From Acidobacteriota bacterium (GTDB lineage Bacteria; Acidobacteriota; Terriglobia; Bryobacterales; Bryobacteraceae): a DNA stretch of 10,251 nucleotides. The position numbers and the translations under genes were made by a program. The notes under the pieces are model-generated. The model had not been told where the DNA came from. It was given only the letters and a program-made list of their open reading frames with translations, and made no database searches. The stretch lies in contig VFZS01000136.1 in the NCBI GenBank assembly GCA_016871095.1, positions 1 to 10,251 on the forward strand. Reading direction: 5' to 3'. Positions 274-10,251 of this stretch are shown here, one piece after another; within the stretch, counting starts at the first letter, position 1, and every line of letters starts with the position of its first letter.

Positions 274-339
274 TGGGAACCGGTTCACCATTGTCGAACA
301 CTCCAGGTATGGATGTGTAATCGCGGCGTGTGCCCGAGG

Positions 340-398
340 GTGTATACTGTGAAGGGCCGCGAAGCCGCATGCCGGCCCGCTAGACTGCGCGCGCGGAG
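340..398 (+). promoter_or_regulatory. Upstream region of the nfeD-flotillin operon, with a Shine-Dalgarno sequence and a candidate -10 element
   Basis: GGAGGTG lies at 386-392, 6 nt before the nfeD ATG at 399. TATACT at 343-348 is a plausible -10 hexamer, but no convincing -35 was found. The 125-bp divergent intergenic region (274-398) separates nfeD from the partial exported-protein gene. Confidence 0.3.
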
Positions 399-968
399 GT
401 GCCGCCGATGGCTGGATTCTTCACGCAGTTCTCCGCCCTGAGCATCTTCCTGGGGATCGCCGCCATCGGCTTTCTGTTCCTGCTGATCTCGCTGGTGTTC
501 GGCGAGATCTTCGAGCACCTGGGAGGCGGATTCGATCACGACGGCGGGCTGGATCACGCCCTGGACCACGGGGGTCCGGGCATCTTCAGCACCCGCATCC
601 TGGCCGTTTTCGTGACCGCGTTCGGAGGCTTCGGGGCCATCGGAACGCATTACGGAATGGGCCCGCTGCCTGCCTCGGGCCTGGGATTCGGCAGCGGCGT
701 GGTCTTCGCGTCCATCATTTATGCCTTTGCGCGCTTCCTGTGGGGCCAGCAGGCCAGCACCGAGGTGCGCACCGCGGACCTGGTGGGGCAGACCGCCCGG
801 GTGGTGGTGGGCATCCCGGCGGGCGGAATCGGCCAGGTGCGTTGCCGGCTGGGCGAGGGGCTCATCGACAAACTGGCCCGGGCTCAGGCCGACGAGGCCA
901 TTCCGGAGAACGCTGTGGTGCGCATCGAAGAGGTGCTGGGGGAAACCGTGATTGTCCGTAGACCTTAG
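399..968 (+). CDS. nfeD: NfeD-like membrane protein. It is the short YuaF/YqiJ type, with an N-terminal transmembrane region and a C-terminal OB-fold domain.
   Basis: The 189-aa ORF has three hydrophobic helices (FSALSIFLGIAAIGFLFLLISLVF; ILAVFVTAFGGFGAIG; GLGFGSGVVFASIIYAFARFLW). These are followed by a soluble C-terminal segment, VGQTARVVVGIPAGGIGQVRCRLGEGLIDKLARAQADEAIPENAVVRIEEVLGETVIV, typical of the NfeD C-terminal beta-barrel. It lies immediately upstream of an SPFH/flotillin gene, the canonical nfeD-floT pairing. There is a good SD. Confidence 0.8.
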   Translation: MPPMAGFFTQFSALSIFLGIAAIGFLFLLISLVFGEIFEHLGGGFDHDGGLDHALDHGGPGIFSTRILAVFVTAFGGFGAIGTHYGMGPLPASGLGFGSGVVFASIIYAFARFLWGQQASTEVRTADLVGQTARVVVGIPAGGIGQVRCRLGEGLIDKLARAQADEAIPENAVVRIEEVLGETVIVRRP

Positions 969-1004
969 CGTGCGGTTGTGGTTCTCAAAGGAGGGTTGCC
1001 CGTG

Positions 1005-2585
1005 ATGGAAGAGACGCTCTTCACCGAGTTTTCCCGCTTGTTGCTCCCGGTAGTGGTCCTGCTGGTGGTGATGGGTCTGTTCATTGCCGCCTGGCTGTTC
1101 AGCCGGAACTACCTGAAAGTATCGCCGAACGCCGTGGCCGTGCTGAGCGGCCGCAAGCGCAAGCTGGCGGACGGGCGGGTGGTGGGGTATCGCATGGTCA
1201 AGGGCGGAGCGGCCTTGAAGTTCCCGCTGCTGGAGAAGGTCGAGTATCTCTCCCTGAACGTAATGACCATCCCGCTGGAGATCAAGCGGGCGTATACGCT
1301 CAAGGGCGTGCCGGTCTCGGTCAAGGCGGTGGCCAACGTCAAGATCCGCAGCGACGACACCTCGTTGCAGGCCGCCGCCGAGCGCTTCCTGAGCATGACC
1401 CACGATCAGACTCAGAAGGTCATCTACCAGACGCTGGAAGGCCACTTGCGCTCCATCCTGGGAACCCTCACGGTGGAGGAGATCAACTCCGACCGGCAGA
1501 GCTTCGCGCAGAAGCTGACCAGTGAGGCGGCGGTGGATCTGGAGAAGATGGGCATCGGGGTGGACGTGCTGACCATCCAGGAGATCAGCGACGAGGAAGG
1601 CTACCTGGACGCGCTGGGCAAGCGCCGCACCGCCGAGGTCAAGCGCGATGCCACCATCGGCGAGGCCGAGGCCACCCGCGACGCCAAAATCAAATCCGCT
1701 CAGGCCCTCCAGGAAGGTGAGCGCGCCAAGTTCGCCGCCGACGCCGAGATCGCCCAGGCGGAGCGCGATTTCCAGATCCGGCAGGCCCAGTATCGAGCGG
1801 AAGTGGATACGCAGCAGGCGCGCGCCAAGCAGGCGGGTCCCTTGTCGGAGGCCCAGGCGCGCCAGGCGGTCGTGGCCGAGGAGGTCAAGGTCGAGTGCAC
1901 TCGCACGCAGGAATTGATCTCCGTGCAGGAGCAGGAGGTCCAGCGCAAGCAGAAGGAACTGGAAGCCACCGTCATCAAGCCCGCCGACGCCGAGCGGCAG
2001 GCCGCCATCGTCCGCGCCGAAGCCGCCAAGCAGGCCGCCATCCTCGAGGCCGAAGGCCGCCGTTCCGCGCTCATCGCCATGGCCGAGGCCGAACAGGAGA
2101 AACTGCGCAAGGAAGGCTTCGGAAGGGCCGCCGCCGTTGAGGTCGAAGGCAAGGCCGAGGCGTCCAGGATCGAGGCTGTGGGCCTGGCCCAGGCCAAGGC
2201 CATCGAAGCTCAGGGCGTCGCCGAAGCCGCCGCCATCCTGCGCAAGGCCGAAGCCTGGCAGCAGTTCAACGAGGCCGCCAAGCTCCAGACCATTCTGGAT
2301 AAGCTGCCGGCCATCTTGCAGGCTTCCACAGGCATCTTCGGAGCGGTGGCCGCGCCGCTGGGCAACATCGACAAGCTGGTGGTCATCGACCAGGGCGGTG
2401 GCGACGGCGGTGGCAGCGGAGCCGCGCGCCTGGCCAAGACCGGTCCGGCCATCGTGTTCAACCTGCTCCAGCAACTGGAGGCCCTGGGACTCAACCTCCC
2501 CGCCGTCGCCGCGCAGCTCGGCCTGAACATGTCCACCGGCGCCGCCAAGGAAGCGGAAAAACCGGAGCAGAAGACCGCCGGATGA
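1005..2585 (+). CDS. floT: Flotillin-like SPFH/Band-7 domain protein (FloT/YuaG-like)
   Basis: The product has an N-terminal TM helix (LLLPVVVLLVVMGLFIAAWLF), then an SPFH domain (VVGYRMVKGGAALKFPLLEKVEYLSLNVMTIPLEIKRAYTLKGVPVSVKAVANVKIRSDD...). A long Ala/Glu-rich coiled-coil (flotillin 'EA repeat') region follows, then a C-terminal tail. AGGAGG at 989-994 precedes in-frame GTG 1002 and ATG 1005. The track's GTG 978 start is less likely because it would overlap the SD. The gene lies 34-37 bp downstream of nfeD, consistent with an operon. Confidence 0.9.
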   Translation: MEETLFTEFSRLLLPVVVLLVVMGLFIAAWLFSRNYLKVSPNAVAVLSGRKRKLADGRVVGYRMVKGGAALKFPLLEKVEYLSLNVMTIPLEIKRAYTLKGVPVSVKAVANVKIRSDDTSLQAAAERFLSMTHDQTQKVIYQTLEGHLRSILGTLTVEEINSDRQSFAQKLTSEAAVDLEKMGIGVDVLTIQEISDEEGYLDALGKRRTAEVKRDATIGEAEATRDAKIKSAQALQEGERAKFAADAEIAQAERDFQIRQAQYRAEVDTQQARAKQAGPLSEAQARQAVVAEEVKVECTRTQELISVQEQEVQRKQKELEATVIKPADAERQAAIVRAEAAKQAAILEAEGRRSALIAMAEAEQEKLRKEGFGRAAAVEVEGKAEASRIEAVGLAQAKAIEAQGVAEAAAILRKAEAWQQFNEAAKLQTILDKLPAILQASTGIFGAVAAPLGNIDKLVVIDQGGGDGGGSGAARLAKTGPAIVFNLLQQLEALGLNLPAVAAQLGLNMSTGAAKEAEKPEQKTAG

Positions 2586-2614
2586 ACCGGGGCCTCGTCC
2601 CCGCTGCTTACCGG

Positions 2615-2636
2615 GTCCGCGGACCGCTCCGCGGTC
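2615..2636 (+). terminator. GC-rich hairpin downstream of the floT stop. It is a candidate intrinsic terminator with no T-tract.
   Basis: The sequence ccgcgga-ccgc-tccgcgg (7-bp perfect stem, 4-nt loop) lies at 2617-2634, 30 nt after the floT stop codon. There is no U-run after it, so it is weak by the E. coli model, though T-tracts are often absent in high-GC genomes. Confidence 0.2.
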
Positions 2637-2646
2637 GGCGTGGGCC

Positions 2647-2775
2647 TCACCCCGCCTTCAGCATCCCCACCACGGCGTTCACCAGGATGACCGCCATGCC
2701 CAGGGGGATCAGCCGCTTCCAGCCCACCTTCATGAGCTGGTCGTAGCGCAGGCGCGGCCAAGCGGCGCGGAAGCA
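2647..2775 (-). repeat. nuoH 3'-end copy A. It is the most complete copy (~125 bp) and has its own TGA stop.
   Basis: Copy A (2650-2770) aligns with the nuoH end (5089-5205) with only a few mismatches, most of them synonymous or conservative: ...cttcagcatccccaccacggcgttcaccaggatgaccgccatgcccagggggatcagccgcttccagcccaccttcatgagctggtcgtagcgcaggcgcggcca.... On the minus strand it encodes ...AAWPRLRYDQLMKVGWKRLIPLGMAVILVNAVVGMLKAG*, compared with the authentic ...ATWPRFRYDQLMNVGWKRLIPLGMAVILVNAVVGMLKG*. Confidence 0.8.
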
Positions 2776-2809
2776 GATCCCTCGGGAACGTTGGCGGGAT
2801 GCGGTTCGG

Positions 2810-3127
2810 CTACTGCTGTGGAAGACGCCGCACCACCCCATCCACCACCGTGATCAGCGCGTTCAGGCGCTCGTCGGTGTGTTGTTGCGTCTCGGCCAGC
2901 GTCAGCAGGGCAGCTCTCGTCTCCTGCTGGAACTGATCGAAGTGCTGGGCCAAACCTAGCTGATGCTCGGCCAGGCGCACCACCAAAGAACGCAACTCGG
3001 CGTGATCCTGCCGCAAGGCCGCCTGCTCCTTCTGCGTGGCCGCCTGCTGCTCTCTCATCTCCTGGAGGCCCGCCCAGAACTTGGCCTGCTGTTCCAGGAT
3101 GAACTCCATGGTGCGCTCGACATCCAT
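2810..3127 (-). CDS. Hypothetical 105-aa Q/E-rich helical (coiled-coil-like) protein. It is cargo of cassette 1.
   Basis: The ORF translates to MDVERTMEFILEQQAKFWAGLQEMREQQAATQKEQAALRQDHAELRSLVVRLAEHQLGLAQHFDQFQQETRAALLTLAETQQHTDERLNALITVVDGVVRRLPQQ. It lies cleanly between repeat copies A and B, in the same orientation as nuoH. An extended -10-like TGGTAGACT on the minus strand (3137-3145) sits 9 nt upstream of the ATG, so the mRNA may be leaderless. There is no SD. I do not recognise a family for this protein. Confidence 0.5.
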   Translation of the reverse strand: MDVERTMEFILEQQAKFWAGLQEMREQQAATQKEQAALRQDHAELRSLVVRLAEHQLGLAQHFDQFQQETRAALLTLAETQQHTDERLNALITVVDGVVRRLPQQ

Positions 3128-3136
3128 CGTGGTTCC

Positions 3137-3145
3137 AGTCTACCA
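3137..3145 (-). promoter_or_regulatory. Candidate extended -10 promoter element (TGgTAGACT) for the 105-aa gene
   Basis: The reverse complement of 3137-3145 is TGGTAGACT, which fits the TGnTAnnnT pattern. It is positioned so that transcription would start at about the ATG (3127). Confidence 0.25.
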
Positions 3146-3168
3146 CGCGGCGCACGCCGGCTGAGGCC

Positions 3169-3258
3169 TTACCACCCCTTCAGCATCCCCACCACGGCGT
3201 TCACCAGGATGACCGCCATGCCCAGGGGGATCAGCCGCTTCCAGCCCACGTTCGCCAC
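3169..3258 (-). repeat. nuoH 3'-end copy B. It is ~80 bp long, has a TAA stop, and diverges abruptly after the NVGWK codons.
   Basis: 3174-3250 (accccttcagcatccccaccacggcgttcaccaggatgaccgccatgcccagggggatcagccgcttccagcccacgttc) is identical to copy A over ~75 nt, apart from one position (acg versus acc). It then diverges abruptly. It encodes ...NVGWKRLIPLGMAVILVNAVVGMLKGW*. Confidence 0.8.
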
Positions 3259-3456
3259 CTGGAACGAGCCGCTGACCGCGCACGTGACCATCGGCGCGGC
3301 AATCAGGAGGACAAGAAGGATTGAATCGTTCTCGGCGCCATCCCCTCGGGGCTTCCCTGGGGGCAGGCCGGCCCCTGCTGAGGCCGCTCCAAACGGTGAT
3401 TCCACCAGGGTGCGGATCCTGGCTGGGCCCGAACCCCTGCCGTGCGGCTCCCAATC

Positions 3457-3465
3457 TGGTAGTCT
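3457..3465 (+). promoter_or_regulatory. Candidate extended -10 promoter element (TGgTAGTCT) for the coiled-coil gene
   Basis: TGGTAGTCT lies 23 nt upstream of ATG 3489. An SD-like AGGTGA (3478-3483) lies 5 nt before the ATG. The sequence is the same nonamer as on the minus strand at 3137-3145, differing at one position. Confidence 0.3.
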
Positions 3466-3488
3466 ATGCCGTTAGGCAGGTGATACGT

Positions 3489-4517
3489 ATGGCTGCGAAA
3501 ACCGTGAAGGCCCCCGCCCGCTCCAGGCGGTCTAAGACCGATGTTGCTGAGGAGTTCTCCGGCATCCGAAAGGAGGTCGAAGGCGCCCGGCTGGTTGCGG
3601 ACGCCAAGGCCGCGGAAGCAGCCGCCCTCCGCGAGACTGAAATCCGCCAGGCGGTCGAAGGACTCTCGGTCGAAACCGTAGTCCAGCGCATCTCCGGTCT
3701 CGGCCTTGAGATCTCGAGAGCCTTGTCGGAAGTCTCCTCCCGGCTGGCCGAGGAAGTGGAGCGTCTGGCCGCCGTGCGTGAGGCCGTCGCCATCGAGCGC
3801 AAAGAACTCGAGCGGCTGCATAAGATCGATGTCGCCGCCACCGCGCTCGATCAGATGGTGCAGGATTTCGTTCGCGAGAAGGAGCGGCTGGAGGCCGAGA
3901 TCGCGGCCGGGCGCACCGCGTGGGAGGAGGAAACCCGCGCTGCGGAGCGTGAGCGCCGCGAGCAGGAAGAAAGCCTGAAGAAACAGCGCCAGCGCGAAAT
4001 CGACGAGTACGAGTACAAGAAGACCCTCGAGCGCAAGAAGGCCCAGGACAAGTACGAAGAAGACCTGCGGCTTCTGGAAAGGAAGAATAAGGAGAAGCAG
4101 GAAGCTCTCGAGAAGGACTGGCAGCAGCGCGCGGCGGCTCTCCACGAAGGGGAACAAGAGCTGCTCGCTTTGCGCAAGGAGGTGGCGGAATTCCCGGCGC
4201 GTCTGCGGGCCGAGGTCGATCAGGCGGTGGCGCGGGCCCTACGGGAGACCGAAGCAAAGTCCCAGCAAGAGATTGTGCTTCTCAAGAGAGACGCCGAGTC
4301 GGAAAAGCGGCTGGCCGAATTGCGGGTTAATACGTTCGAGGAGTTGGTCGCCCGCCAGGCCACGCAGATTGCGGCACTCCAGAAACAGCTCGATGAGGCC
4401 AAGCAGCAGGTCCAGGACATCGCCCTGAAGGCCATCGAGGGCGCCTCCGGCGCCAAGGCGCTCGCCCACATCAACCAAATCGCCATGGAGCAGGCCAAGA
4501 GCCGCCCGCAAACTTAA
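3489..4517 (+). CDS. Hypothetical 342-aa coiled-coil protein, rich in K, E and R. It is cargo of cassette 2.
   Basis: The protein begins MAAKTVKAPARSRRSKTDVAEEFSGIRKEVEGARLVADAKAAEAAALRETEIRQAVEGL.... It continues through EEETRAAERERREQEESLKKQRQREIDEYEYKKTLERKKAQDKYEEDLRLLERKNKEKQEALEKDWQQR and ends ...QLDEAKQQVQDIALKAIEGASGAKALAHINQIAMEQAKSRPQT. There is heptad-like helical character throughout and no TM segment. The start is taken at ATG 3489 because it has an SD. The track's 3321 start would add 56 Pro/Gly/Arg-rich residues typical of off-frame GC-rich translation. GC is locally lower (about 52-60% around 3960-4140) because of AAG/GAG codons. Confidence 0.6.
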   Translation: MAAKTVKAPARSRRSKTDVAEEFSGIRKEVEGARLVADAKAAEAAALRETEIRQAVEGLSVETVVQRISGLGLEISRALSEVSSRLAEEVERLAAVREAVAIERKELERLHKIDVAATALDQMVQDFVREKERLEAEIAAGRTAWEEETRAAERERREQEESLKKQRQREIDEYEYKKTLERKKAQDKYEEDLRLLERKNKEKQEALEKDWQQRAAALHEGEQELLALRKEVAEFPARLRAEVDQAVARALRETEAKSQQEIVLLKRDAESEKRLAELRVNTFEELVARQATQIAALQKQLDEAKQQVQDIALKAIEGASGAKALAHINQIAMEQAKSRPQT

Positions 4518-4590
4518 GCGGGGCGGAGAACTGCACGGTGGTCAGGCCGACCCGAGCCGCCTGCCGTTCGCATCGGCGCGCACATGTGCA

Positions 4591-4692
4591 TGGCAGCCCC
4601 GTTCACCAGGATCACCGCCGTGCCCAGGGGGATCAGCCGCTTCCAGCCCGCGTTCATGAGCTGGCCGTAGCGCAGGCGCGGCCAGGTGGGCC
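4591..4692 (-). repeat. nuoH 3'-end copy C. It is ~100 bp long, more diverged, and lacks the stop-proximal ~25 bp.
   Basis: The copy reads cgttcaccaggatcaccgccgtgcccagggggatcagccgcttccagcccgcgttcatgagctggccgtagcgcaggcgcggccaggt. It shares the gatcagccgc and gcgcaggcgcgg variants with copy A rather than with the gene-attached end. It encodes ...WPRLRYGQLMNAGWKRLIPLGTAVILVNGAAM and then loses homology. It has no stop-proximal MLKG segment. Confidence 0.7.
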
Positions 4693-4699
4693 ACTGGCA

Positions 4700-4705
4700 T
4701 ATACT
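4700..4705 (+). promoter_or_regulatory. Candidate -10 hexamer (TATACT) upstream of the UPF0175-like gene
   Basis: TATACT lies ~55 nt upstream of ATG 4761. A strong SD, GGGAGGG (4747-4753), sits 7 nt before the ATG. No clear -35 was found. A sigma54-like TGGCAT..TGCA overlap was considered and rejected. Confidence 0.25.
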
Positions 4706-4760
4706 GGGTGCAGAACCACCCCCAGGCACGCGGGTTGCCTGAGGCAGGGAGGGCCCAGCG

Positions 4761-5021
4761 ATGAGCACGTTGACTGTTGAACTCGACCCGGAACTCGTGA
4801 CGCTGCTCGAGGGCCTTGAACGTCCGATCCAGGAGACCGCGCGCGAGCTGATCGTGCTGGAACTCTACCGAAGGGGAGCGGTCTCCAGCGGAAGGGCGGC
4901 CGAGTTGCTGGGGCTGTCACGGGAGTCCTTCCTCGACCTGGCCTCGCGGCTCGGCGTCCCGTATTTCCGCTTGACTGAGGCCGAACTGGAGCAGGAAGGC
5001 CGTCACAGCAAGTCCCTCTGA
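4761..5021 (+). CDS. UPF0175-family antitoxin-like small protein (86 aa). It is cargo of cassette 3.
   Basis: The translation is MSTLTVELDPELVTLLEGLERPIQETARELIVLELYRRGAVSSGRAAELLGLSRESFLDLASRLGVPYFRLTEAELEQEGRHSKSL. The segment ELYRRG-x-S-x-GRAAELLGLS-x-xxFLDLLxxxGVP matches the UPF0175 signature as I recall it (canonically ...LYRRGKISLGKAAELAGMSRWEFLELL..GIP). There is a strong SD. The gene is convergent with nuoH, and its stop lies 63 bp from the nuoH stop codon. Confidence 0.7.
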   Translation: MSTLTVELDPELVTLLEGLERPIQETARELIVLELYRRGAVSSGRAAELLGLSRESFLDLASRLGVPYFRLTEAELEQEGRHSKSL

Positions 5022-5084
5022 CAGGTTGCTCTGAGCGGCCGGCGAGAGAGGGGCTGGTGCCCGCGATCGAAGCGGCGCTGCCCA

Positions 5085-6263
5085 CTACCCCTTCAGCATC
5101 CCCACCACGGCGTTCACCAGGATGACCGCCATGCCCAGGGGGATGAGGCGCTTCCAGCCCACGTTCATGAGCTGGTCGTAGCGGAACCGCGGCCAGGTCG
5201 CCCGGAACCAGATGATGGCGTAAACCACCACCGCCACCTTGAGGAAGAACCAGAACAGGCCGATGACCGCGGCGTTCACCACCGGCACCACGAAGACCAG
5301 TCCCAGGAACACCAGGGCCAGCCCCACCAGGCGCAGGAACATGGCGTTGAGCCGGCTCTTGAGCCGGCCCGCCAGCGGGAAGCACATCACCCCGGAGCCT
5401 GCCATCAGCGCCAGCGGCAGGCCGTAGTTGAGCGGATACTCCAGCCACCCCACGCTGGGGAAGGGCCGCAGCCACCCGCCCCAGAACAGCGTCACCGCCA
5501 CCGCGGAGACCACGAAGATGTTGACGTACTCGGCCAAAAAGTACAGCGCCCAGCGGAACCCGCTGTACTCGGTCATGAAGCCGGCCACCAGCTCGGACTC
5601 GGCCTCGGGCAGATCGAAGGGCGCGCGGTTGGTCTCGGCGATGGCCGCGATCAGGTAGATCACGAAAGGCAGCAGCATCAGCCCGTAGTTCTCGAAGGCA
5701 AACCACACGCCGCGCTCCTGCTGCGCCCGCACGATGCCGGCCAGGCTGAGCGTGCCCGCCATCATCACGCCGTTGAGCAGGCCAAACGCCAGGGCCACTT
5801 CGTAGCTGATCAACTGCGCGCCGCCGCGCAGCGTCCCCAACAGCGCATAGTGGCTGTTGGCCGACCAGCCCCCCAGCACGATGCCCAGCACGCCCACCGC
5901 CGACATCGAGGAAATCACCAGCAGCCCCACGTTCACGTCGGCCACCTGGACGTGCTGGCTGAAGGGCAGCACCGAGAGCGCGGTCAGCGCGGTGAAAGTC
6001 GAGATGCAGGGCGCCATCCAGTACAGGAAGCGGTCGGAGTCCGCCGGCATCAGGTCTTCCTTGAGCAGCAGCTTGAGGGCATCGGCCAGCGGTTGCAAAA
6101 TCCCGTGCGGGCCTACCCGCATGGGCCCCAGCCGCGCCTGGAAGTCGCCCAGCAGCTTGCGCTCGGCCAGCACCATGTAGCCGGCGATCAAGGGAAAGGC
6201 CACCACCATCACGCCCGACAGGACCAGCGCGATCACCAGCGGATGCAGGAGGAAGTTCAGCAT
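5085..6263 (-). CDS. nuoH: NADH-quinone oxidoreductase subunit H (complex I ND1 homologue)
   Basis: The 392-aa product carries hallmark NuoH motifs. These are the N-terminal ...AERKLLGDFQARLGPMRVGP, EYSGFRWALYFLAEY, and the C-terminal RATWPRFRYDQLMNVGWKRLIPLGMAVIL. Its start lies 6 bp after the nuoN stop. Confidence 0.95.
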   Translation of the reverse strand: MLNFLLHPLVIALVLSGVMVVAFPLIAGYMVLAERKLLGDFQARLGPMRVGPHGILQPLADALKLLLKEDLMPADSDRFLYWMAPCISTFTALTALSVLPFSQHVQVADVNVGLLVISSMSAVGVLGIVLGGWSANSHYALLGTLRGGAQLISYEVALAFGLLNGVMMAGTLSLAGIVRAQQERGVWFAFENYGLMLLPFVIYLIAAIAETNRAPFDLPEAESELVAGFMTEYSGFRWALYFLAEYVNIFVVSAVAVTLFWGGWLRPFPSVGWLEYPLNYGLPLALMAGSGVMCFPLAGRLKSRLNAMFLRLVGLALVFLGLVFVVPVVNAAVIGLFWFFLKVAVVVYAIIWFRATWPRFRYDQLMNVGWKRLIPLGMAVILVNAVVGMLKG

Positions 6264-6269
6264 AGCAAG

Positions 6270-7739
6270 TTACCGCGCCAGGGAAGTCTGCGCCAGCCGC
6301 AGAAACGGTTCCGGATAGACTCCGATAACCAATGTAAGAATGCCGGTTATGCCGAGCGCCAACCGCAACCCATAACTGGAAGCCACCGGCACGCGGTCGG
6401 CCTCCTCGCCGGCGAACATGCTACGCACCACCCGGAAGTAGTAGTACACCGCCACGGCCGCGTACAGCGTCCCGATCACCGCCAGCACGTAATGCCGGGT
6501 CTCGATCAGCGCCAGGAAAATGTAATACTTGCCCAGGAAGCCCGCGGTGGGCGGGATGCCGGCCAGCGACACCAGGAAGATCAGCATCAACACCGCGTGC
6601 ATGGGGCTCTTCTTCATCAGCCCGCCCAGATCATCGAGGTCCTCCCCCAACAACTCCTCGCGCCGCAGCGCCACCACCACCAGGAACGCCCCGAGCGTCA
6701 TGAAGGTGTACACCAGCACGTACACCGCGACGCCCTTCAGGCCGGTGGGATTGCCCGCCACCACCCCCAGCAGAATGTAGCCCGCGTGCGAGATCGAGCT
6801 ATAGGCCAGCAGCCGCTTGATGTTGGTCTGAGTGATGGCCGCCAGATTGCCCAGCGTCAGCGTGGCCACCGCGATGACGGCCAGCAGCGGCTCCCACACC
6901 TCCCGCAGCGTCCACAGCGGCCCGGTGAAGAGCCTCATCAGCAGCGCGAAGGAGGCCGCCTTGGAGCCCACCGCCAGGTAGGCGGTCACCGGCGTGGGCG
7001 CGCCCTCGTAGGCGTCCGGCGCCCACATGTGGAAAGGCACGGCCGAGACCTTGAAGAGCAGCCCCACCATGGTGGTGGCCAGCGCCAGGAACACCAGCGG
7101 ATCCCAAAGGTCGCGCGCCTGTATGGCCAGCGCCACGTCCCGCAGCCGCGTCGAGCCGGCCAGCCCGTACATCACCGAGAAACCGTAGGCCAGAAACCCG
7201 CTCGAAAACGCGCCCAGCAGCAGGTACTTCATGGCCGCTTCGTTCGAGCGGCGGTCGGCTCGCAGGAAGCCCACCAGCACGTAGAAGCACAGGGCCATCA
7301 GTTCCAGGCCCACGAACACCGTCACCAGGTCCGTGCCCGTGGCCAGGAAGAACATGCCGCAGTTGGCCAGCAGGATCAGCCCGTAGTACTCGCCGTGGTG
7401 CTCGCCTTCGATCTCCAGGAAGCGGTAGGACACCACCGCCACGATGAAGGACGCCGCCAGAAACACCCAGTTGAAGAACAGCGAGAAGCCGTCGATGGTG
7501 AGAGCGCCCTGGAAGGCGCTGATCTGGGTCAGGCCCTGCTGCGCCAGGTAGCTCTGCTGCCGCCACAGCCCCAGTCCGGTGAAAGCCTGCCCGATCACCA
7601 CGAACACCAGCAGCCAGCGGCGGTGACGGAGGCCGGGCGCCAGCAGGAAGTCGAACAGCAGCACCGCGCAGCCGAACAGCGCCAGCATGATGGCGGGCAC
7701 CAGCGCGAAGTGGTCCAGGGAGGTGTAGTACTGGCTCAT
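6270..7739 (-). CDS. nuoN: NADH-quinone oxidoreductase subunit N (ND2 homologue)
   Basis: The 489-aa polytopic membrane protein begins MSQYYTSLDHFALVPAIMLALFG.... It has typical antiporter-like NuoN helices. Its ATG overlaps the nuoM stop (ATGA, 7736-7739), indicating translational coupling. Confidence 0.9.
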   Translation of the reverse strand: MSQYYTSLDHFALVPAIMLALFGCAVLLFDFLLAPGLRHRRWLLVFVVIGQAFTGLGLWRQQSYLAQQGLTQISAFQGALTIDGFSLFFNWVFLAASFIVAVVSYRFLEIEGEHHGEYYGLILLANCGMFFLATGTDLVTVFVGLELMALCFYVLVGFLRADRRSNEAAMKYLLLGAFSSGFLAYGFSVMYGLAGSTRLRDVALAIQARDLWDPLVFLALATTMVGLLFKVSAVPFHMWAPDAYEGAPTPVTAYLAVGSKAASFALLMRLFTGPLWTLREVWEPLLAVIAVATLTLGNLAAITQTNIKRLLAYSSISHAGYILLGVVAGNPTGLKGVAVYVLVYTFMTLGAFLVVVALRREELLGEDLDDLGGLMKKSPMHAVLMLIFLVSLAGIPPTAGFLGKYYIFLALIETRHYVLAVIGTLYAAVAVYYYFRVVRSMFAGEEADRVPVASSYGLRLALGITGILTLVIGVYPEPFLRLAQTSLAR

Positions 7740-9301
7740 CGAGCGGCCTCCATGGCGGGCGCGCGGTTAGAGGCGGCGGGCGGGTGGAGGGCCGCCGCCC
7801 TGCCAGCGAAGTAACCCGGGCGGACGCGCTCGACGATCTGCGCCACCGGCTTCTCCAGCACGTCAAAGTACGGCTTGGGATACACGCCGATCCAGACGGC
7901 CCACGCGATAAGCGGCAGGAAAGTCGCCAGCTCGCGCAGGTTCAGATCGGGCAGCCGCCGGTTCTTCTCGTTGGTGACCTCGCCCAGCATCGTGCGCTGA
8001 TAGAGCCACAGCAAGTAGGCCGCGCCCAGGATCACCCCGGTGACGGCCAGCGCCGCCCAGGTCCGGCTGGCCTCGAAGGCCCCTTGCAGGATGGTGAACT
8101 CCCCGATGAACCCGTTCAGCAGCGGCAACCCGGCGGAGCTAAGCATGGCAATGGCGAAGACCACCGCGTACACCGGCATCACGTGGCCCAGTCCGCCGTA
8201 GTCCTTGATCTCCCGGGTGTGCCGCCGCTCGTAGATGATGCCCACGATCAAGAACAGCATGCCGGTCGAGATCCCGTGGTTGATCTGCTGGATCACGCTC
8301 CCGGCCAGGCCGTTGGGGTTGAGCGCGAAGATGCCCAGCGTGCAGAAACCCAGGTGACTTACCGACGAGTAAGCGACCAGTTTCTTCCAGTCCTGCTGCA
8401 TCAGGCTGACCAAGGCCCCGTAGATAATGCCGATGATCGACAGCGCGGCCAGCACCTGCACGATGACCACGTTGGCGGAAGCCTGAGGCAACAGCGGCAG
8501 CGAGAAGCGGATGAACCCGTAGGTCCCCATCTTCAGCAGGACGCTGGCCAGCACCACCGACCCGGCCGTGGGCGCCTCCACGTGCGCGTCCGGCAGCCAG
8601 GTGTGGAAGGGGAACATGGGCACCTTGATGGCGAAGCCGATGAAGAAGGCCCAGAAGACCCACTGCTCCAGGCCGGGCGAGAGGTTGAGCTTCATCAGCT
8701 CCGAGATCTCGAAAGTGTAGAAACCCCGCTGCTGAAAGTGCTGCAAGTACAGCGTCAGGATGCCCAGCAGCATCAGCGTGCCGCCCGCCAGCGTGTACAG
8801 AAAGAACTTGATCGCCGCGTACAGCTTCCGCGGCCCGCCCCACACCCCGATGATAAAGTACATCGGCACCAGGACCACTTCCCAGAACACGAAGAACATG
8901 AAGAAGTCCAGGGCCACGAACACCCCGATCATCCCGGTCTGCTGGAGCAGGAACATGGCGTAGTATTCCTTGACCCGCTCCTGGACCGCGCTCCAGCTCG
9001 ACAGGATGGCCAGCATGCCCACCAGCGTGGTGAGCATCACCAGCAGCAGGCTGATGCCGTCGATGCCGATGTAGTATTTCACTCCCAGGGCGGGAATCCA
9101 GTCCGCGCGCTCGACAAACTGGAAGCCGTCGGCGTGCTTGTCGAAACGGAATACCAGCGGCAGCGAAACCAGGAACCCGGCCAGCGCGGCCAGGTTGGCC
9201 CACCACCGGATCAGGTTCTTCTTCGAGGCGGGGAGCAGCAACAGCACCGCCATGCCGACCAGCGGCGTGAACAGAACCCAACTCAGCCAGTGAGAGCCCA
9301 T
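7736..9301 (-). CDS. nuoM: NADH-quinone oxidoreductase subunit M (ND4 homologue)
   Basis: The 521-aa product begins MGSHWLSWVLFTPLVGMAVLLLLPA.... It contains ...YYIGIDGISLLLVMLTTLVGMLAILSSW..., VLVPMYFIIGVWGG, and other NuoM/ND4 antiporter-like motifs. It starts 4 bp after the nuoL stop. Confidence 0.9.
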   Translation of the reverse strand: MGSHWLSWVLFTPLVGMAVLLLLPASKKNLIRWWANLAALAGFLVSLPLVFRFDKHADGFQFVERADWIPALGVKYYIGIDGISLLLVMLTTLVGMLAILSSWSAVQERVKEYYAMFLLQQTGMIGVFVALDFFMFFVFWEVVLVPMYFIIGVWGGPRKLYAAIKFFLYTLAGGTLMLLGILTLYLQHFQQRGFYTFEISELMKLNLSPGLEQWVFWAFFIGFAIKVPMFPFHTWLPDAHVEAPTAGSVVLASVLLKMGTYGFIRFSLPLLPQASANVVIVQVLAALSIIGIIYGALVSLMQQDWKKLVAYSSVSHLGFCTLGIFALNPNGLAGSVIQQINHGISTGMLFLIVGIIYERRHTREIKDYGGLGHVMPVYAVVFAIAMLSSAGLPLLNGFIGEFTILQGAFEASRTWAALAVTGVILGAAYLLWLYQRTMLGEVTNEKNRRLPDLNLRELATFLPLIAWAVWIGVYPKPYFDVLEKPVAQIVERVRPGYFAGRAAALHPPAASNRAPAMEAAR

Positions 9302-9305
9302 GGAA

Positions 9306-10251
9306 TCAACGCATCAGATAGTAACCGAAAATCAGCGCCACGCCCAGCACAAATACCAGCGCATAGACCTGCACATATCCGGTCTGTAACACCCGCGCCG
9401 GGAAGGAAGACATCTTAACGAGGAAGGAGGACAGGCGCACCGCCCCGTCCACGATCCAGGTGTCCCACCAGATGCTCACCCGCGAGGCGAAGCGCGTCAG
9501 CCAGCCCGTGCCGTTCACCCCGCCGTCCACCACGGCGTTGTCGAAGGCGGCCAGGGCCGAGCCGCCGCCCTTGGACAGGCCGTTCACGAAAAGCAGGTCG
9601 TACAGCTCGTCCACGTACCACTTGTTGTAGGCCCAGGTGTAGACCCGCCCGGCGGCCTGCTTCAGCGCTTCAGCCTGCTCCGGGCGGCGCTGGTAGAGCC
9701 GCCAGGCCAGGGCGATGCCCGCACCCGCCACAACCACCGAAAGCAGCATGAGCAGCCACTCCAGCGAGGCCGAGTGCGCGTGCTCTTCCGCGCCGTGCGC
9801 GGCGTGCCCGCCCACCACCGGCTCGAGCCAGTGTTCGAAGGTGCGGAACGCCTCCGGGAACGCGCTCCACAGCTTGGGAACTCCTATCCAGCCGGCCACG
9901 ATGCTGCCCATCGCCAGCGCCACCAGCGGCAGTGTCATCACGCGCGGCGACTCGTGCATGTGCGCGGCTGCCTTCGGCTCCACCCGGCTCTGCCCGTAGA
10001 AGGTCAGCGCCATCAGCCGCCACATGTAAAAGGCCGTCATTCCCGCCGTGGCCACTCCCACCAGCCACAGCCACACCGAGCCACCGCTGAAGGCCTGCCA
10101 CAGTATCTCGTCCTTCGAGAAGAATCCCGCCAGCCCGGGCACGCCGGCGATGGCCAGCGTCCCCGCCAGCATGGTCCAGTGGGTGGCGGGGATCTTGTCC
10201 TTCAAGCCTCCCATGCGCCGCATGTCCTGCTCGCCGGAGAGGGCGTGAATC
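9306..10251 (-). CDS. nuoL: NADH-quinone oxidoreductase subunit L (ND5 homologue). This is the C-terminal portion; the gene continues beyond the right edge of the window.
   Basis: The ORF reads through the window end. The reverse complement of the final bases gives IHALSGEQDMRRMGGLKDKIPATHWTMLAGTLAIAGVPGLAGFFSKDEIL..., the conserved NuoL 'SGEQDMRKMGGL' region. The track's M at 10223 is internal. The C-terminus is ...VLGVALIFGYYLMR*. Confidence 0.9.
   Translation of the reverse strand, partial: IHALSGEQDMRRMGGLKDKIPATHWTMLAGTLAIAGVPGLAGFFSKDEILWQAFSGGSVWLWLVGVATAGMTAFYMWRLMALTFYGQSRVEPKAAAHMHESPRVMTLPLVALAMGSIVAGWIGVPKLWSAFPEAFRTFEHWLEPVVGGHAAHGAEEHAHSASLEWLLMLLSVVVAGAGIALAWRLYQRRPEQAEALKQAAGRVYTWAYNKWYVDELYDLLFVNGLSKGGGSALAAFDNAVVDGGVNGTGWLTRFASRVSIWWDTWIVDGAVRLSSFLVKMSSFPARVLQTGYVQVYALVFVLGVALIFGYYLMR

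Follow-up and report, generated by a model that had tools for sequence, protein, structure and literature searches.

Arrays of small cassettes at the 3' end of nuoH in Bryobacteraceae, and the recombination that may have built them

The 3' ends of protein-coding genes serve as insertion sites for e14 and phage 21 (icd of E. coli) and for streptococcal ICE and IME (fda, guaA and rpsI), among others, and are a less rare kind of target than a sequence-only reading of the locus described here had supposed. Integrons and CALINs hold shuffled one- or two-gene cassettes, each with one site and rich in toxin‒antitoxin modules, and CALINs lack a linked integrase. Accessory genes are also spread by homologous recombination at flanking core genes (integration hotspots). 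Integrase-mediated insertion at the 3' end of a protein gene supplies a replacement end, and such elements accrete in tandem together with CIMEs (PMC5704250). The tycheposons of Prochlorococcus carry tyrosine recombinases, and the partial copies described for them derive from tRNA genes (bioRxiv 10.1101/2020.12.28.424599). The dif (pdif) modules of Acinetobacter have 28-bp XerC/XerD sites in alternating orientation, reside mostly on plasmids, and are moved by a recombinase encoded elsewhere, being shuffled among replicons (PMC13141974, PMC6449649).

The window (the whole stretch of DNA analysed, 10,251 nt, contig VFZS01000136.1 of a member of the Bryobacteraceae) carries an array of cassettes downstream of nuoH, the gene that closes a nuoJ-K-L-M-N-H operon (gene order from contig L001). 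Its features, beginning with nuoH, are:

5085-6263, minus strand: nuoH, on which the array is anchored; an intact gene for 392 aa that matches Pfam NADHdh along the full profile (2.7e-110)
5085-5213, minus strand: copy G, the gene-attached nuoH 3' end, with the 27-nt core GGCTGGAAGCGCCTCATCCCCCTGGGC at 5133-5159
4703-5084, no strand assigned: cassette 1, with an orphan UPF0175 antitoxin gene (4761-5021, plus strand)
4597-4702, minus strand: copy C, a displaced nuoH end, core at 4622-4648
3259-4596, no strand assigned: cassette 2, with the gene of a 342-aa coiled-coil protein (3489-4517, plus strand)
3170-3258, minus strand: copy B, a displaced nuoH end, core at 3220-3246, ending in TAA
2779-3169, no strand assigned: cassette 3, with the gene of a 105-aa coiled-coil protein (2810-3127, minus strand)
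2586-2778, minus strand: copy A (2647-2778, core at 2698-2724, own TGA at its end) and its trailing sequence
399-2585, plus strand: distal chromosomal flank, an NfeD-like gene (399-968) and a flotillin gene (978/1005-2585), convergent with the array

A repeat search of the window returned four direct copies of 131 nt as one family, at 2648-2778, 3170-3300 (74%), 4572-4702 (75%) and 5083-5213 (89%). Self-BLAST aligned 2655-2778 with 5090-5213 (91.1% over 124 nt, E 3e-45), 2643-2731 with 3165-3253 (95.5% over 89 nt), 3171-3253 with 5084-5166 (96.4% over 83 nt) and 2676-2760 with 4600-4684 (94.1% over 85 nt). The similarity is far above chance level, and all copies lie on the minus strand, as does nuoH. 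Repeat search, self-BLAST and alignment thus agree on the three extra direct copies claimed in the sequence-only reading, as well as on the single small gene (UPF0175, 342-aa or 105-aa) in each interval between copies.

The copies differ in how much of nuoH they retain. Copy C ends about 30 nt past the core and, as previously claimed, lacks the stop-proximal part of the gene (the last ~8 codons in the alignment). Its 5' boundary, agtatatgccag / TWPRLRY, also follows type-a UPF0175 cassettes in L091, L110 and L121, and is shared by the UPF0175 copy on the left edge of L093, where the 5' stub TWSRFRYDQL alone survives. In copy B homology 5' of the core is limited to 7 nt; its stop-proximal arm, a 42-nt spacer and the 105-aa gene are likewise contiguous in L133, so that this arm may represent the original end of nuoH. 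Contig L093 lacks a 196-nt block (3175-3370) and has one GCTGAGGCC there, compared with two flanking copies in the window. Copy A has the longest 5' arm in the window (~70 nt), and the 61 nt trailing it carry a perfect hairpin, CCGCGGA-CCGC-TCCGCGG. The copies are polymorphic among relatives, as the claim of mobility had led one to expect: copy A is missing from strain contig L003 and from relatives L093 and L133, and L093 lacks both A and B.

Gene-calling programs place a 64-aa NADHdh ORF on copy A, and assemblies often break at the repeats (L001, L128 and L132, with L128 extending only to the flotillin-copy A junction), observations that would fit functional small membrane-peptide genes derived from the nuoH C-terminal helix, or an assembly artefact. 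Both are very improbable, as displaced copies in relatives contain stop codons or truncations (L092, L110, L121), and independent assemblies from several samples and different MAG studies are concordant. The window arrangement was itself recovered in separate assemblies of five or more other samples (L002, L004, L127, L130, L131) and its copies have diverged by many substitutions; it is therefore not an artefact, as had been argued from the substitutions and differing copy boundaries.

The antitoxin of cassette 1 (Pfam UPF0175, 4.1e-16; PADLOC PDC-S70), whose gene stops just 63 nt from the nuoH stop, is without its DUF3368/PIN-like toxin partner. Since intact pairs with the DUF3368 toxin are present in L091, L093, L110 and L126, the window copy is a decayed type II toxin‒antitoxin module. 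The proteins of cassettes 2 and 3 matched no family in Pfam or PADLOC. A counterpart of the cassette 2 gene, 91% identical, is held by L093, and Logan contig L132 consists of the cassette 2 unit with the core at either end. The 105-aa protein of cassette 3 has 33 homologues, mainly metagenome proteins (one source is an Acidobacteriota MAG), and its gene also occurs at sites away from nuoH. The flank (Pfam Band_7, 2.8e-26, Flot and NfeD) is shared by L093 and L133. A flotillin 'empty site' directly after nuoH, proposed as a check, does not occur in the relatives available, since synteny is lost beyond nuoH. Cassette order is fixed in the window's population; with no cassette-level polymorphism there, and with decay visible in the orphan antitoxin and truncated copy C, the array looks like an old, decaying example, more fossil than active.

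Extra nuoH ends downstream of nuoH were found in three of about 16 species of the GWKRLIP subclade of Bryobacteraceae (L010, L016, L060), in L133 and, through the suggested metagenome search, in at least 11 further contigs; the bearers are related soil and lake Acidobacteria. In all of these, as in the window, direct repeats from the target gene end flank each unit. The cargo comprises HicA/HicB (two types), DUF3368+UPF0175, HEPN+nucleotidyltransferase (HEPN-MNT), BrnT+CopG (BrnTA), an AbiGi-like gene and a nuclease pair including an EEP nuclease. The same architecture with other cargo is what one would expect if, as first proposed, the repeats mark the boundaries of separately acquired small cassettes. 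Orders and combinations vary: UPF|HicAB2|HEPN-MNT in L121, UPF|HEPN-MNT|BrnTA|PIN-UPF in L093 and HicBA1|HicAB2|EEP in L060, and a single cassette with a single copy is all that separates L093 from L121. In five instances of HicAB2, similarity begins at the nuoH stop and always ends in the next copy at RFRYDQ, and type-a UPF0175 cassettes have the common boundary agtatatgccag. The boundary in the nuoH fragment behind the cargo is thus particular to the cassette type, and cargo and fragment together form the unit. Decay is seen here too: toxins are truncated or absent in relatives' arrays, L097 has an internal deletion within a copy, and L124 has lost one copy and half of hicA.

In the body of the HicAB2 cassette L010 and L060 share 93.8% identity, compared with 79.3% in that of nuoH; L010 and L124 share 91.7% (nuoH 77.7%). 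A cassette at 94% in two species with nuoH at 79% has moved horizontally. A purely local history, in which tandem duplications of the nuoH end and unrelated insertions were inherited vertically with no mobility, would suit the fixed cassette order in the window's population and the UPF0175 cassettes, which diverge between lineages about as much as nuoH does. It is contradicted for the array family as a whole by HicAB2, the varying orders and the clean one-cassette indel between L093 and L121, and is quite unlikely as a general account, but it may describe the window's recent history. An identical, invariant arrangement in all close relatives, which would have counted against the sequence-only reading, is not what was found: the arrays are polymorphic, recur and have moved between species.

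The cassettes could instead be what is left of larger prophages, ICEs or IMEs with an integrase, which entered the nuoH 3' end one by one and were then almost wholly deleted. Deletions are frequent in these arrays, and toxin‒antitoxin modules are common stabilising cargo near att sites, from general knowledge and PMC5704250. The roughly 40 cassettes in more than 20 arrays are nevertheless all 0.4-2 kb, without any integrase fragment, and the same cassette with the same two boundaries occurs in different hosts and positions, which independent decay would not produce. We consider this origin unlikely. The earlier suggestion of 'decayed remnants' fits the window's array, which looks old and is decaying, but is disfavoured for the cassettes themselves, as tidy units recur across hosts.

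A recombinase is absent from the window's ORFs (ORF list and Pfam), as first reported, and from the cassette proteins of the arrays. None was among the 25 Pfam families listed, of 84, for 58 downstream ORFs, and a tyrosine-recombinase motif scan of limited sensitivity gave no match in 1.48 Mb of related loci. These searches covered the arrays and related loci. Viral contigs, phages and plasmids yielded no attP-bearing parent element or carrier, and no parent ICE or IME with a nuoH att site was found.

In comparison with integrase-driven insertion, the similarities are that target-end direct repeats flank the inserts, the gene stays intact, the old end is displaced and units accumulate in tandem; like CIMEs, the nuoH cassettes have no integrase of their own. 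However, the units measure 0.4-2 kb, against 10-100 kb for integrase-driven elements; searches of more than 20 arrays gave no integrase in cis or close by, and a parent element is not known. The arms are also of very variable length, the stop-proximal arm tracking the host and not the element. Tycheposon islands likewise have older elements pushed outward, parted only by partial target copies, with degenerated remnants scattered; the nuoH target differs in being a protein-coding end, and the window has no recombinase and no tRNA or tmRNA, both of which were searched for. The arrays share with integrons and CALINs their shuffled one- or two-gene cassettes, their richness in toxin‒antitoxin modules and the lack of a linked integrase. 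The repeat is, however, a piece of coding sequence where integrons have an attC hairpin, intI and attI are both lacking, most of the cargo runs antisense to nuoH and the sites vary in length. No pair of attC R''/R' boxes (RYYYAAC...GTTRRRY) was seen on reading the repeat, and its predicted hairpin (z -2.3 to -3.8) needs lineage-specific codons missing from other lineages' copies (alignment reading). An integron or CALIN was rejected, as the nuo operon, with no integrase, lies upstream of the first cassette and the repeat is nuoH coding sequence. With dif modules the arrays have in common small, shuffled units, often toxin‒antitoxin modules, bounded by repeats, but the nuoH repeats are direct, 25-550 nt long and chromosomal at a gene end. 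Xer dif modules were rejected because all copies are direct and no dif-like sequence was seen on inspection; an 11-6-11 look-alike, CATGGCGGTCA-TCCTGG-TGAACGCCGTG, is not conserved in other lineages. The turnover of defence-type genes at one fixed site, without mobile-element machinery, is shared with hotspots that core genes flank, the difference being that each unit in the nuoH arrays carries its own partial core-gene copy.

Several features of the copies point to homology-driven recombination. The length of their 5' arm varies between 0 and about 550 nt. The displaced copy of L010/L106 contains a 26-nt patch identical to the host gene within cassette-type sequence. Stop-proximal arms track host lineage and not cargo (e.g., L126 and L060 versus L124; nuoH is intact in the window, and the arm beside a given cassette goes with the host lineage), and the displaced copy of L016 has host-specific W-R-R codons. 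The one crossover that was mapped, in a hybrid copy between lineages about 10% diverged, switches parent outside the conserved core, ~40-50 nt 3' of where the core starts. The same architecture occurs in L014 at an aminotransferase gene. Arm lengths, conversion patch, crossover and aminotransferase look-alike make RecA-type recombination at least as likely as an integrase.

Movement of the same arrays by a site-specific recombinase encoded elsewhere, acting within a ~25-27 bp core GCTGGAAGCGSCTSATCCCCCTGGG in the nuoH end, is a possible but less probable alternative. The host itself would encode the enzyme, in the way that Xer serves dif modules, or an unseen helper would carry it, as with CIMEs; the cassettes would then be integrative modules that are not autonomous. 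In array copies, many of them pseudogenes, diversity in the 27-nt core GGCTGGAAGCGCCTGATCCCCCTGGGC is 0.095 against 0.146 and 0.217 in the flanks; in relatives without arrays it is 0.145 against 0.095 and 0.224. A core less diverse in arrays only is expected of a recombinase site, although a shared block of identity would also focus RecA crossovers. Independent truncations end at core edges (L060 copy 2, window copy B and the L010/L106 copy), in a search biased towards copies that retain the core. RecA recombination is inefficient at ~80% sequence identity, which counts against the homology-driven model: a cassette crossed lineages with nuoH just 79% identical, and the longest identical run between L060-type arms and L010 nuoH is ~13 nt (by eye). 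Toxin‒antitoxin mini-cassette arrays are otherwise known from recombinase-driven systems, integrons and dif modules. In architecture and cargo the nuoH arrays are like those of integrons, CALINs and dif modules (PMC13141974, PMC6449649), and in their stacking like tandem integrase-driven accretion (PMC5704250; bioRxiv 10.1101/2020.12.28.424599). Against a site-specific enzyme stand the lack of a recombinase and of an attP-bearing element in the loci and collections searched, the arms, patch, crossover and look-alike described above, a core that is divergent in L016 and lacks obvious dyad symmetry on inspection, and an imperfect palindrome further 3' that is absent from other lineages' copies (alignment reading). 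Of the original proposal of site-specific mobile cassettes, mobility is supported by HicAB2, while site specificity is weakened by the signs of homology and by the absence of an integrase or attP parent from the searches.

Our preferred reading, held with about even confidence, is that cassette arrays accreted on the nuoH 3' end without a recombinase of their own, movement being most likely homology-driven (RecA-type) and not due to a dedicated integrase. A cassette consists of cargo, typically a toxin‒antitoxin or abortive-infection module, usually convergent with nuoH and beginning no more than ~10 nt from its stop, plus the nuoH fragment that follows, with a 5' boundary fixed per cassette type. 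Entry would occur by recombination between the cassette's fragment and the resident nuoH end, keeping the 3' end of nuoH complete and shifting the former end further downstream, where it stays as a pseudogene copy. Stacks would arise by successive entries, recombination between copies would lose or reshuffle cassettes, and later illegitimate deletions would erode copies and toxins. RecA-type crossover and gene conversion in nuoH-derived repeats are the likely route; cassettes may be born at illegitimate junctions, e.g., by tandem duplication or imprecise pop-out.

Should a recombinase be at work after all, Bryobacteraceae may possess an undescribed integron-like capture platform, a speculative and rather doubtful prospect, in which the final codons of the essential nuoH contain a ~25-27 bp site for an unlinked host enzyme. 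Such a platform would capture, stack and exchange one- or two-gene toxin‒antitoxin and anti-phage cassettes that have no recombinase of their own, and might use analogous sites in other genes. A literature search found no description of accessory units that each carry a partial core-gene copy and are stacked as pseudocopies. Under the preferred homology-driven accretion, the nuoH end would be conserved enough to act as a portable homology arm for spread between related genomes, and accessory units, each with its own partial copy of a core gene, would build up a stack of gene-end pseudocopies.

The minus strand of the window carries nuoL (partial), nuoM, nuoN and nuoH, the last of which is intact (nt 5085-6263, minus strand; Pfam NADHdh, 2.7e-110). 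A repeat search of the window returned only one repeat family, made up of four direct copies of the last ~130 nt of nuoH (nt 5083-5213, 4572-4702, 3170-3300 and 2648-2778), and alignment and self-BLAST gave a homology of ~89-96% over 83-124 nt (E-values 1e-28 to 1e-45). The array following the gene-attached copy comprises:

nt 4761-5021, UPF0175 antitoxin gene, between copies (Pfam, 4e-16)
nt 4597-4702, copy C, direct, lacking the last ~8 codons, ~50 nt of homology 5' of the shared core
nt 3489-4517, 342-aa coiled-coil gene, between copies
nt 3170-3258, copy B, direct, reaching its own stop codon, 7 nt of homology 5' of the shared core
nt 2810-3127, 105-aa gene, between copies
nt 2647-2778, copy A, direct, reaching its own stop codon, ~70 nt of homology 5' of the shared core
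beyond the array, flotillin and NfeD genes

The extra nuoH 3' ends in direct orientation that the sequence-only reading described were recovered by the repeat search, the alignment and self-BLAST alike, and each interval carries one small gene. Its view that an assembly artefact is unlikely also holds, as independent assemblies from several samples of the source lake metagenome series (JGI Ga0194110-Ga0194126) contain this arrangement. The repeat arrangement is real, and an explanation by artefact or by peptide genes is scarcely credible. Gene callers also report the displaced copies as NADHdh mini-genes. RNA gene searches of the window gave neither a tRNA or tmRNA gene nor a match to any Rfam family, and a promoter and terminator scan was uninformative. 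A perfect hairpin without a T tract (CCGCGGA-CCGC-TCCGCGG, nt 2610-2635) lies just 3' of the copy A stop codon and may be the old nuoH terminator region. Long antisense ORFs of 544-729 aa (nt 285-2474, minus strand; 5850-7814 and 7784-9418, plus strand) lie opposite real genes; they are typical mirror ORFs of high-GC DNA, not genes.

One genome per species was scanned with NuoH, giving 80 Acidobacteriota loci, of which the closest relatives belong to the Bryobacteraceae and Solibacteraceae (70-85% amino-acid identity). In both families the operon ends with nuoH. The gene order is J-K-L-M-N-H in Bryobacterales (window nt 5085-10223; related locus L001), nuoH having moved to the operon end, compared with H-I-J-K in Terriglobia, which retain nuoH-I-J-K, so that in Bryobacterales the conserved nuoH end adjoins a variable region. 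Flotillin, NfeD and the window cassette genes were absent within 10 kb of nuoH in all 80 relatives, none of which showed downstream synteny with the window, so that none offers the flotillin 'empty site' suggested in the sequence-only reading; among the loci compared, the flotillin/NfeD flank is common only to L093 and L133. L060, L010 and L016 have extra nuoH ends downstream of nuoH, three of them in L060, and all three loci fall within the subclade in which NuoH ends in GWKRLIP, a prevalence of ~3/16 per species. Metagenome contigs scanned for the exact core pattern yielded 39 contigs. Beyond the arrays of these relatives and two contigs of the window's own species, at least 11 contigs carry 2-4 copies, and others have a single copy adjoining a cassette, although these counts overstate prevalence because the scan favours contigs with many copies. 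Comparison of relatives and a search of metagenomes, both proposed in the sequence-only reading, revealed nuoH-end arrays with other cargo.

The cargo of these arrays, assessed by Pfam and PADLOC, includes two different HicA/HicB pairs, DUF3368 (PIN-like) with UPF0175 (the PADLOC candidate PDC-S70), HEPN with a nucleotidyltransferase, BrnT with a CopG-type antitoxin, an AbiGi-like protein, and a 196-aa protein paired with one of the endonuclease/exonuclease/phosphatase family. Several cargo proteins have no family match, and PADLOC returned none for the 342-aa, 105-aa, P396, EEP and P196 proteins.

Layouts of nuoH-end arrays in related loci and metagenome contigs, in gene orientation (r, nuoH-end copy)
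L060: nuoH / HicB1A1 / r / HicA2B2 / r / EEP-P196 / r
L124: as L060, minus one r and half of hicA2 (deleted)
L010: nuoH / HicA2B2 / r / P396
L106: r / HicA2B2 / r / P396 / r
L110: nuoH / PIN-UPF / r / HicA2B2 / r
L121: PIN-UPF / r / HicA2B2 / r / HEPN-MNT / r
L093: UPF / r / HEPN-MNT / r / BrnTA / r / PIN-UPF / r' / 342-aa gene, 105-aa gene, flotillin
L090, L119, L097: nuoH / PIN(decayed)-UPF / r / flank
L126: r / HEPN-MNT / AbiGi / r / PIN-UPF

Given the PIN-UPF pairs in relatives' arrays, the UPF0175 gene of the window (nt 4761-5021, with nt 5022-5084 separating it from the nuoH stop) represents the antitoxin half of a pair that has lost its DUF3368 toxin. In L090, L097 and L119 the toxin is truncated but the antitoxin intact, from which it appears that the toxin decays first.

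Several comparisons indicate that cassettes are units and have moved. Between L010 and L060, identity is 93.8% for the HicA2B2 cassette body and 79.3% for the nuoH body; between L010 and L124 the values are 91.7% and 77.7%. In the five HicA2B2 instances, similarity runs from the nuoH stop codon through the cargo into the next copy, which starts at the identical point (RFRYDQ) after the same cassette sequence in 5/5. Likewise, type-a UPF0175 cassettes always end agtatatgccag followed by (A)TWPR, window copy C included. These fixed boundaries indicate that the nuoH fragment following the cargo is part of the cassette. The difference between L093 and L121 amounts to exactly one cassette and one copy. 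For other cassettes, UPF0175 among them, similarity between lineages is no higher than that of nuoH, so much of the pattern is old or vertically inherited. Purely local duplication, without movement of such units, is very unlikely as the general explanation.

Homology-driven recombination has about an even chance of being what moves the cassettes, judging from the sequence comparisons. Arms 5' of the core span 0 to ~550 nt, stop-proximal arms track the host lineage and not the cargo, and the displaced copy of L010/L106 contains an internal 26-nt patch identical to the host gene. The displaced copy of L016 has host-specific codons within the core, and a hybrid copy in L093 switches parent ~40-50 nt 3' of the core start. 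A further case is L014, where an HTH-antitoxin and toxin-like pair is bracketed by a ~75-nt duplicate of an aminotransferase 3' region, showing that the architecture is not tied to nuoH. The less probable reading is that an unlinked site-specific recombinase acts in trans. In 30 array copies the 27-nt core GGCTGGAAGCGCCTGATCCCCCTGGGC shows less diversity than the sequence on either side (0.095 versus 0.146 and 0.217), which is not so in 14 array-free relatives (0.145 versus 0.095 and 0.224). Transfer has also occurred between lineages sharing little uninterrupted identity, and independent truncations stop at the core edges, an observation that was down-weighted since core-less copies would have escaped the searches.

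Within the stop-proximal arm lies an imperfect palindrome, GATCCCC..CATGGCGGTCA-TCCTGG-TGAACGCCGTG..GGGGAT (approximately nt 5096-5143, 3181-3228 and 2660-2707), which folds as single-stranded DNA better than shuffled sequences (z-score -2.3 to -3.8) in a manner dependent on lineage-specific codons. An Xer or tyrosine-recombinase site of 11-6-11 form was rejected, as the symmetry is missing in other array-bearing lineages, wholly so in the L010/L106 copy; with the symmetry absent from those copies, the palindrome is probably a coding coincidence.

The lack of an integrase in the window, noted in the sequence-only reading, was confirmed by Pfam searches of its ORFs, which found no recombinase; none was found among the cassette proteins either, and the best 25 of 84 Pfam families from 58 downstream ORFs included no integrase. 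Over 1.48 Mb of related loci, a regular expression for tyrosine-recombinase box II had no match and one for serine recombinases gave weak matches only, none adjoining an array. A degenerate core scan of viral contigs was negative, and BLAST of the whole array gave no match to phages and only an unrelated nuoH in plasmids. That the arrays are remnants of large elements is considered very unlikely.

L093 is informative about the window's own array. The flotillin/NfeD flank and the 342-aa gene share 85-91% nucleotide identity between the two, and the 105-aa gene ~70%, but L093 lacks copies A and B, and its copy C is reduced to a stub. Within window nt 3165-3370, a 196-nt block with copy B has a 9-bp direct repeat, GCTGAGGCC, at both ends, of which L093 has one copy; this is consistent with a deletion through microhomology in L093 as well as with an insertion that duplicated its target. 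L133 has the order nuoH, three genes of unknown function, r, 105-aa gene, 151-aa gene and flotillin, and its passage from r into the 105-aa gene is collinear with that from copy B in the window; the stop-proximal arm of copy B may therefore be the ancestral nuoH end, and the 105-aa gene an old neighbour. Most strain contigs have copy A, but L003 does not, and at its junction the final ~35 nt of the 105-aa gene carry substitutions like those of L093. Either the window lineage gained copies A and B or they were lost elsewhere. A cassette order fixed within the lake population, the orphan antitoxin and the truncation of copy C jointly indicate that the window array is old and decaying. A 105-aa homologue (60% identity) occurs away from any nuoH in L136:5607-8330 (ERZ27247320 k141_941767), after genes of 119, 409 and 224 aa without family match, and so the 105-aa gene is not confined to the nuoH locus. 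A 1427-nt contig found in five samples (L132; Logan SRR16108674_460277) equals window nt 3220-4646, exactly the 342-aa cassette with the same 25-nt core at both ends; the assembly graph may have broken at the repeat, or the contig may stem from a circular form.

Further observations concern other positions. In L014:6462-8600 (JBEKLJ010000011.1, a Bryobacteraceae MAG) the aminotransferase piece at 7515-7582 recurs at 8520-8587 (88%), bracketing the HTH-type antitoxin-like gene and a 122-aa toxin-like gene, and the two C-terminal tails beyond the repeat are unrelated. The same locus has a convergent VapC (PIN) and FitA-like VapB pair directly after the nuoH stop (3486-4108), with no nuoH-end copy detectable behind it. 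In L081:12620-14240 (a Terriglobia MAG) nuoK and nuoL are separated by two inserted genes, a putative short-chain dehydrogenase-like ORF (from sequence reading) and a 126-aa gene. A ~60-nt GTAAAG-rich repeat, which takes in the 126-aa gene 5' end and differs in kind from the nuoH copies, brackets each of the two.

Integrase-bearing elements and their CIME derivatives are known to accrete in tandem at gene ends (PMC5704250), and such accretion is also known for tycheposon islands (bioRxiv 10.1101/2020.12.28.424599). The nuoH arrays share this architecture with both, but no integrase was found in those searched. In cargo and unit size they resemble integron and CALIN arrays, although their repeats have no attC structure, and also the dif modules of Acinetobacter (PMC13141974, PMC6449649), from which they differ in having no dif-like site and no alternating site orientation. 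Sequence inspection ruled out both an attC-like and a dif-like reading of the repeat. As far as they were searched, the nuoH arrays differ in defining features from integrase/CIME elements, tycheposons, integrons/CALINs and dif modules. In a non-exhaustive literature search nuoH was nowhere described as an attachment site, and toxin-antitoxin mini-cassettes that hold a conserved-gene fragment or lie between partial gene duplicates did not come up either.

The proposal is that mini-cassettes would use their own piece of a conserved essential gene as a landing handle and stack behind that gene, a process that would proceed without visible mobile-element machinery. The arrays account for spurious 'NADH dehydrogenase' mini-genes in annotations and for assemblies that often break after nuoH. 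Should plain homologous recombination be the mechanism, they are a tidy, incremental example of a recombination hotspot; a dedicated recombinase, if found, would sharply raise their interest. If the proposal is true, the range of cassette systems would no longer stop at integrons and dif modules, the movement of chromosomal toxin-antitoxin modules, a question of long standing, would become directly testable at a defined locus, and a natural landing pad for engineering poorly tractable Acidobacteria would be indicated. It would also provide a route for the turnover of toxin-antitoxin and anti-phage genes in abundant soil and freshwater Acidobacteria.
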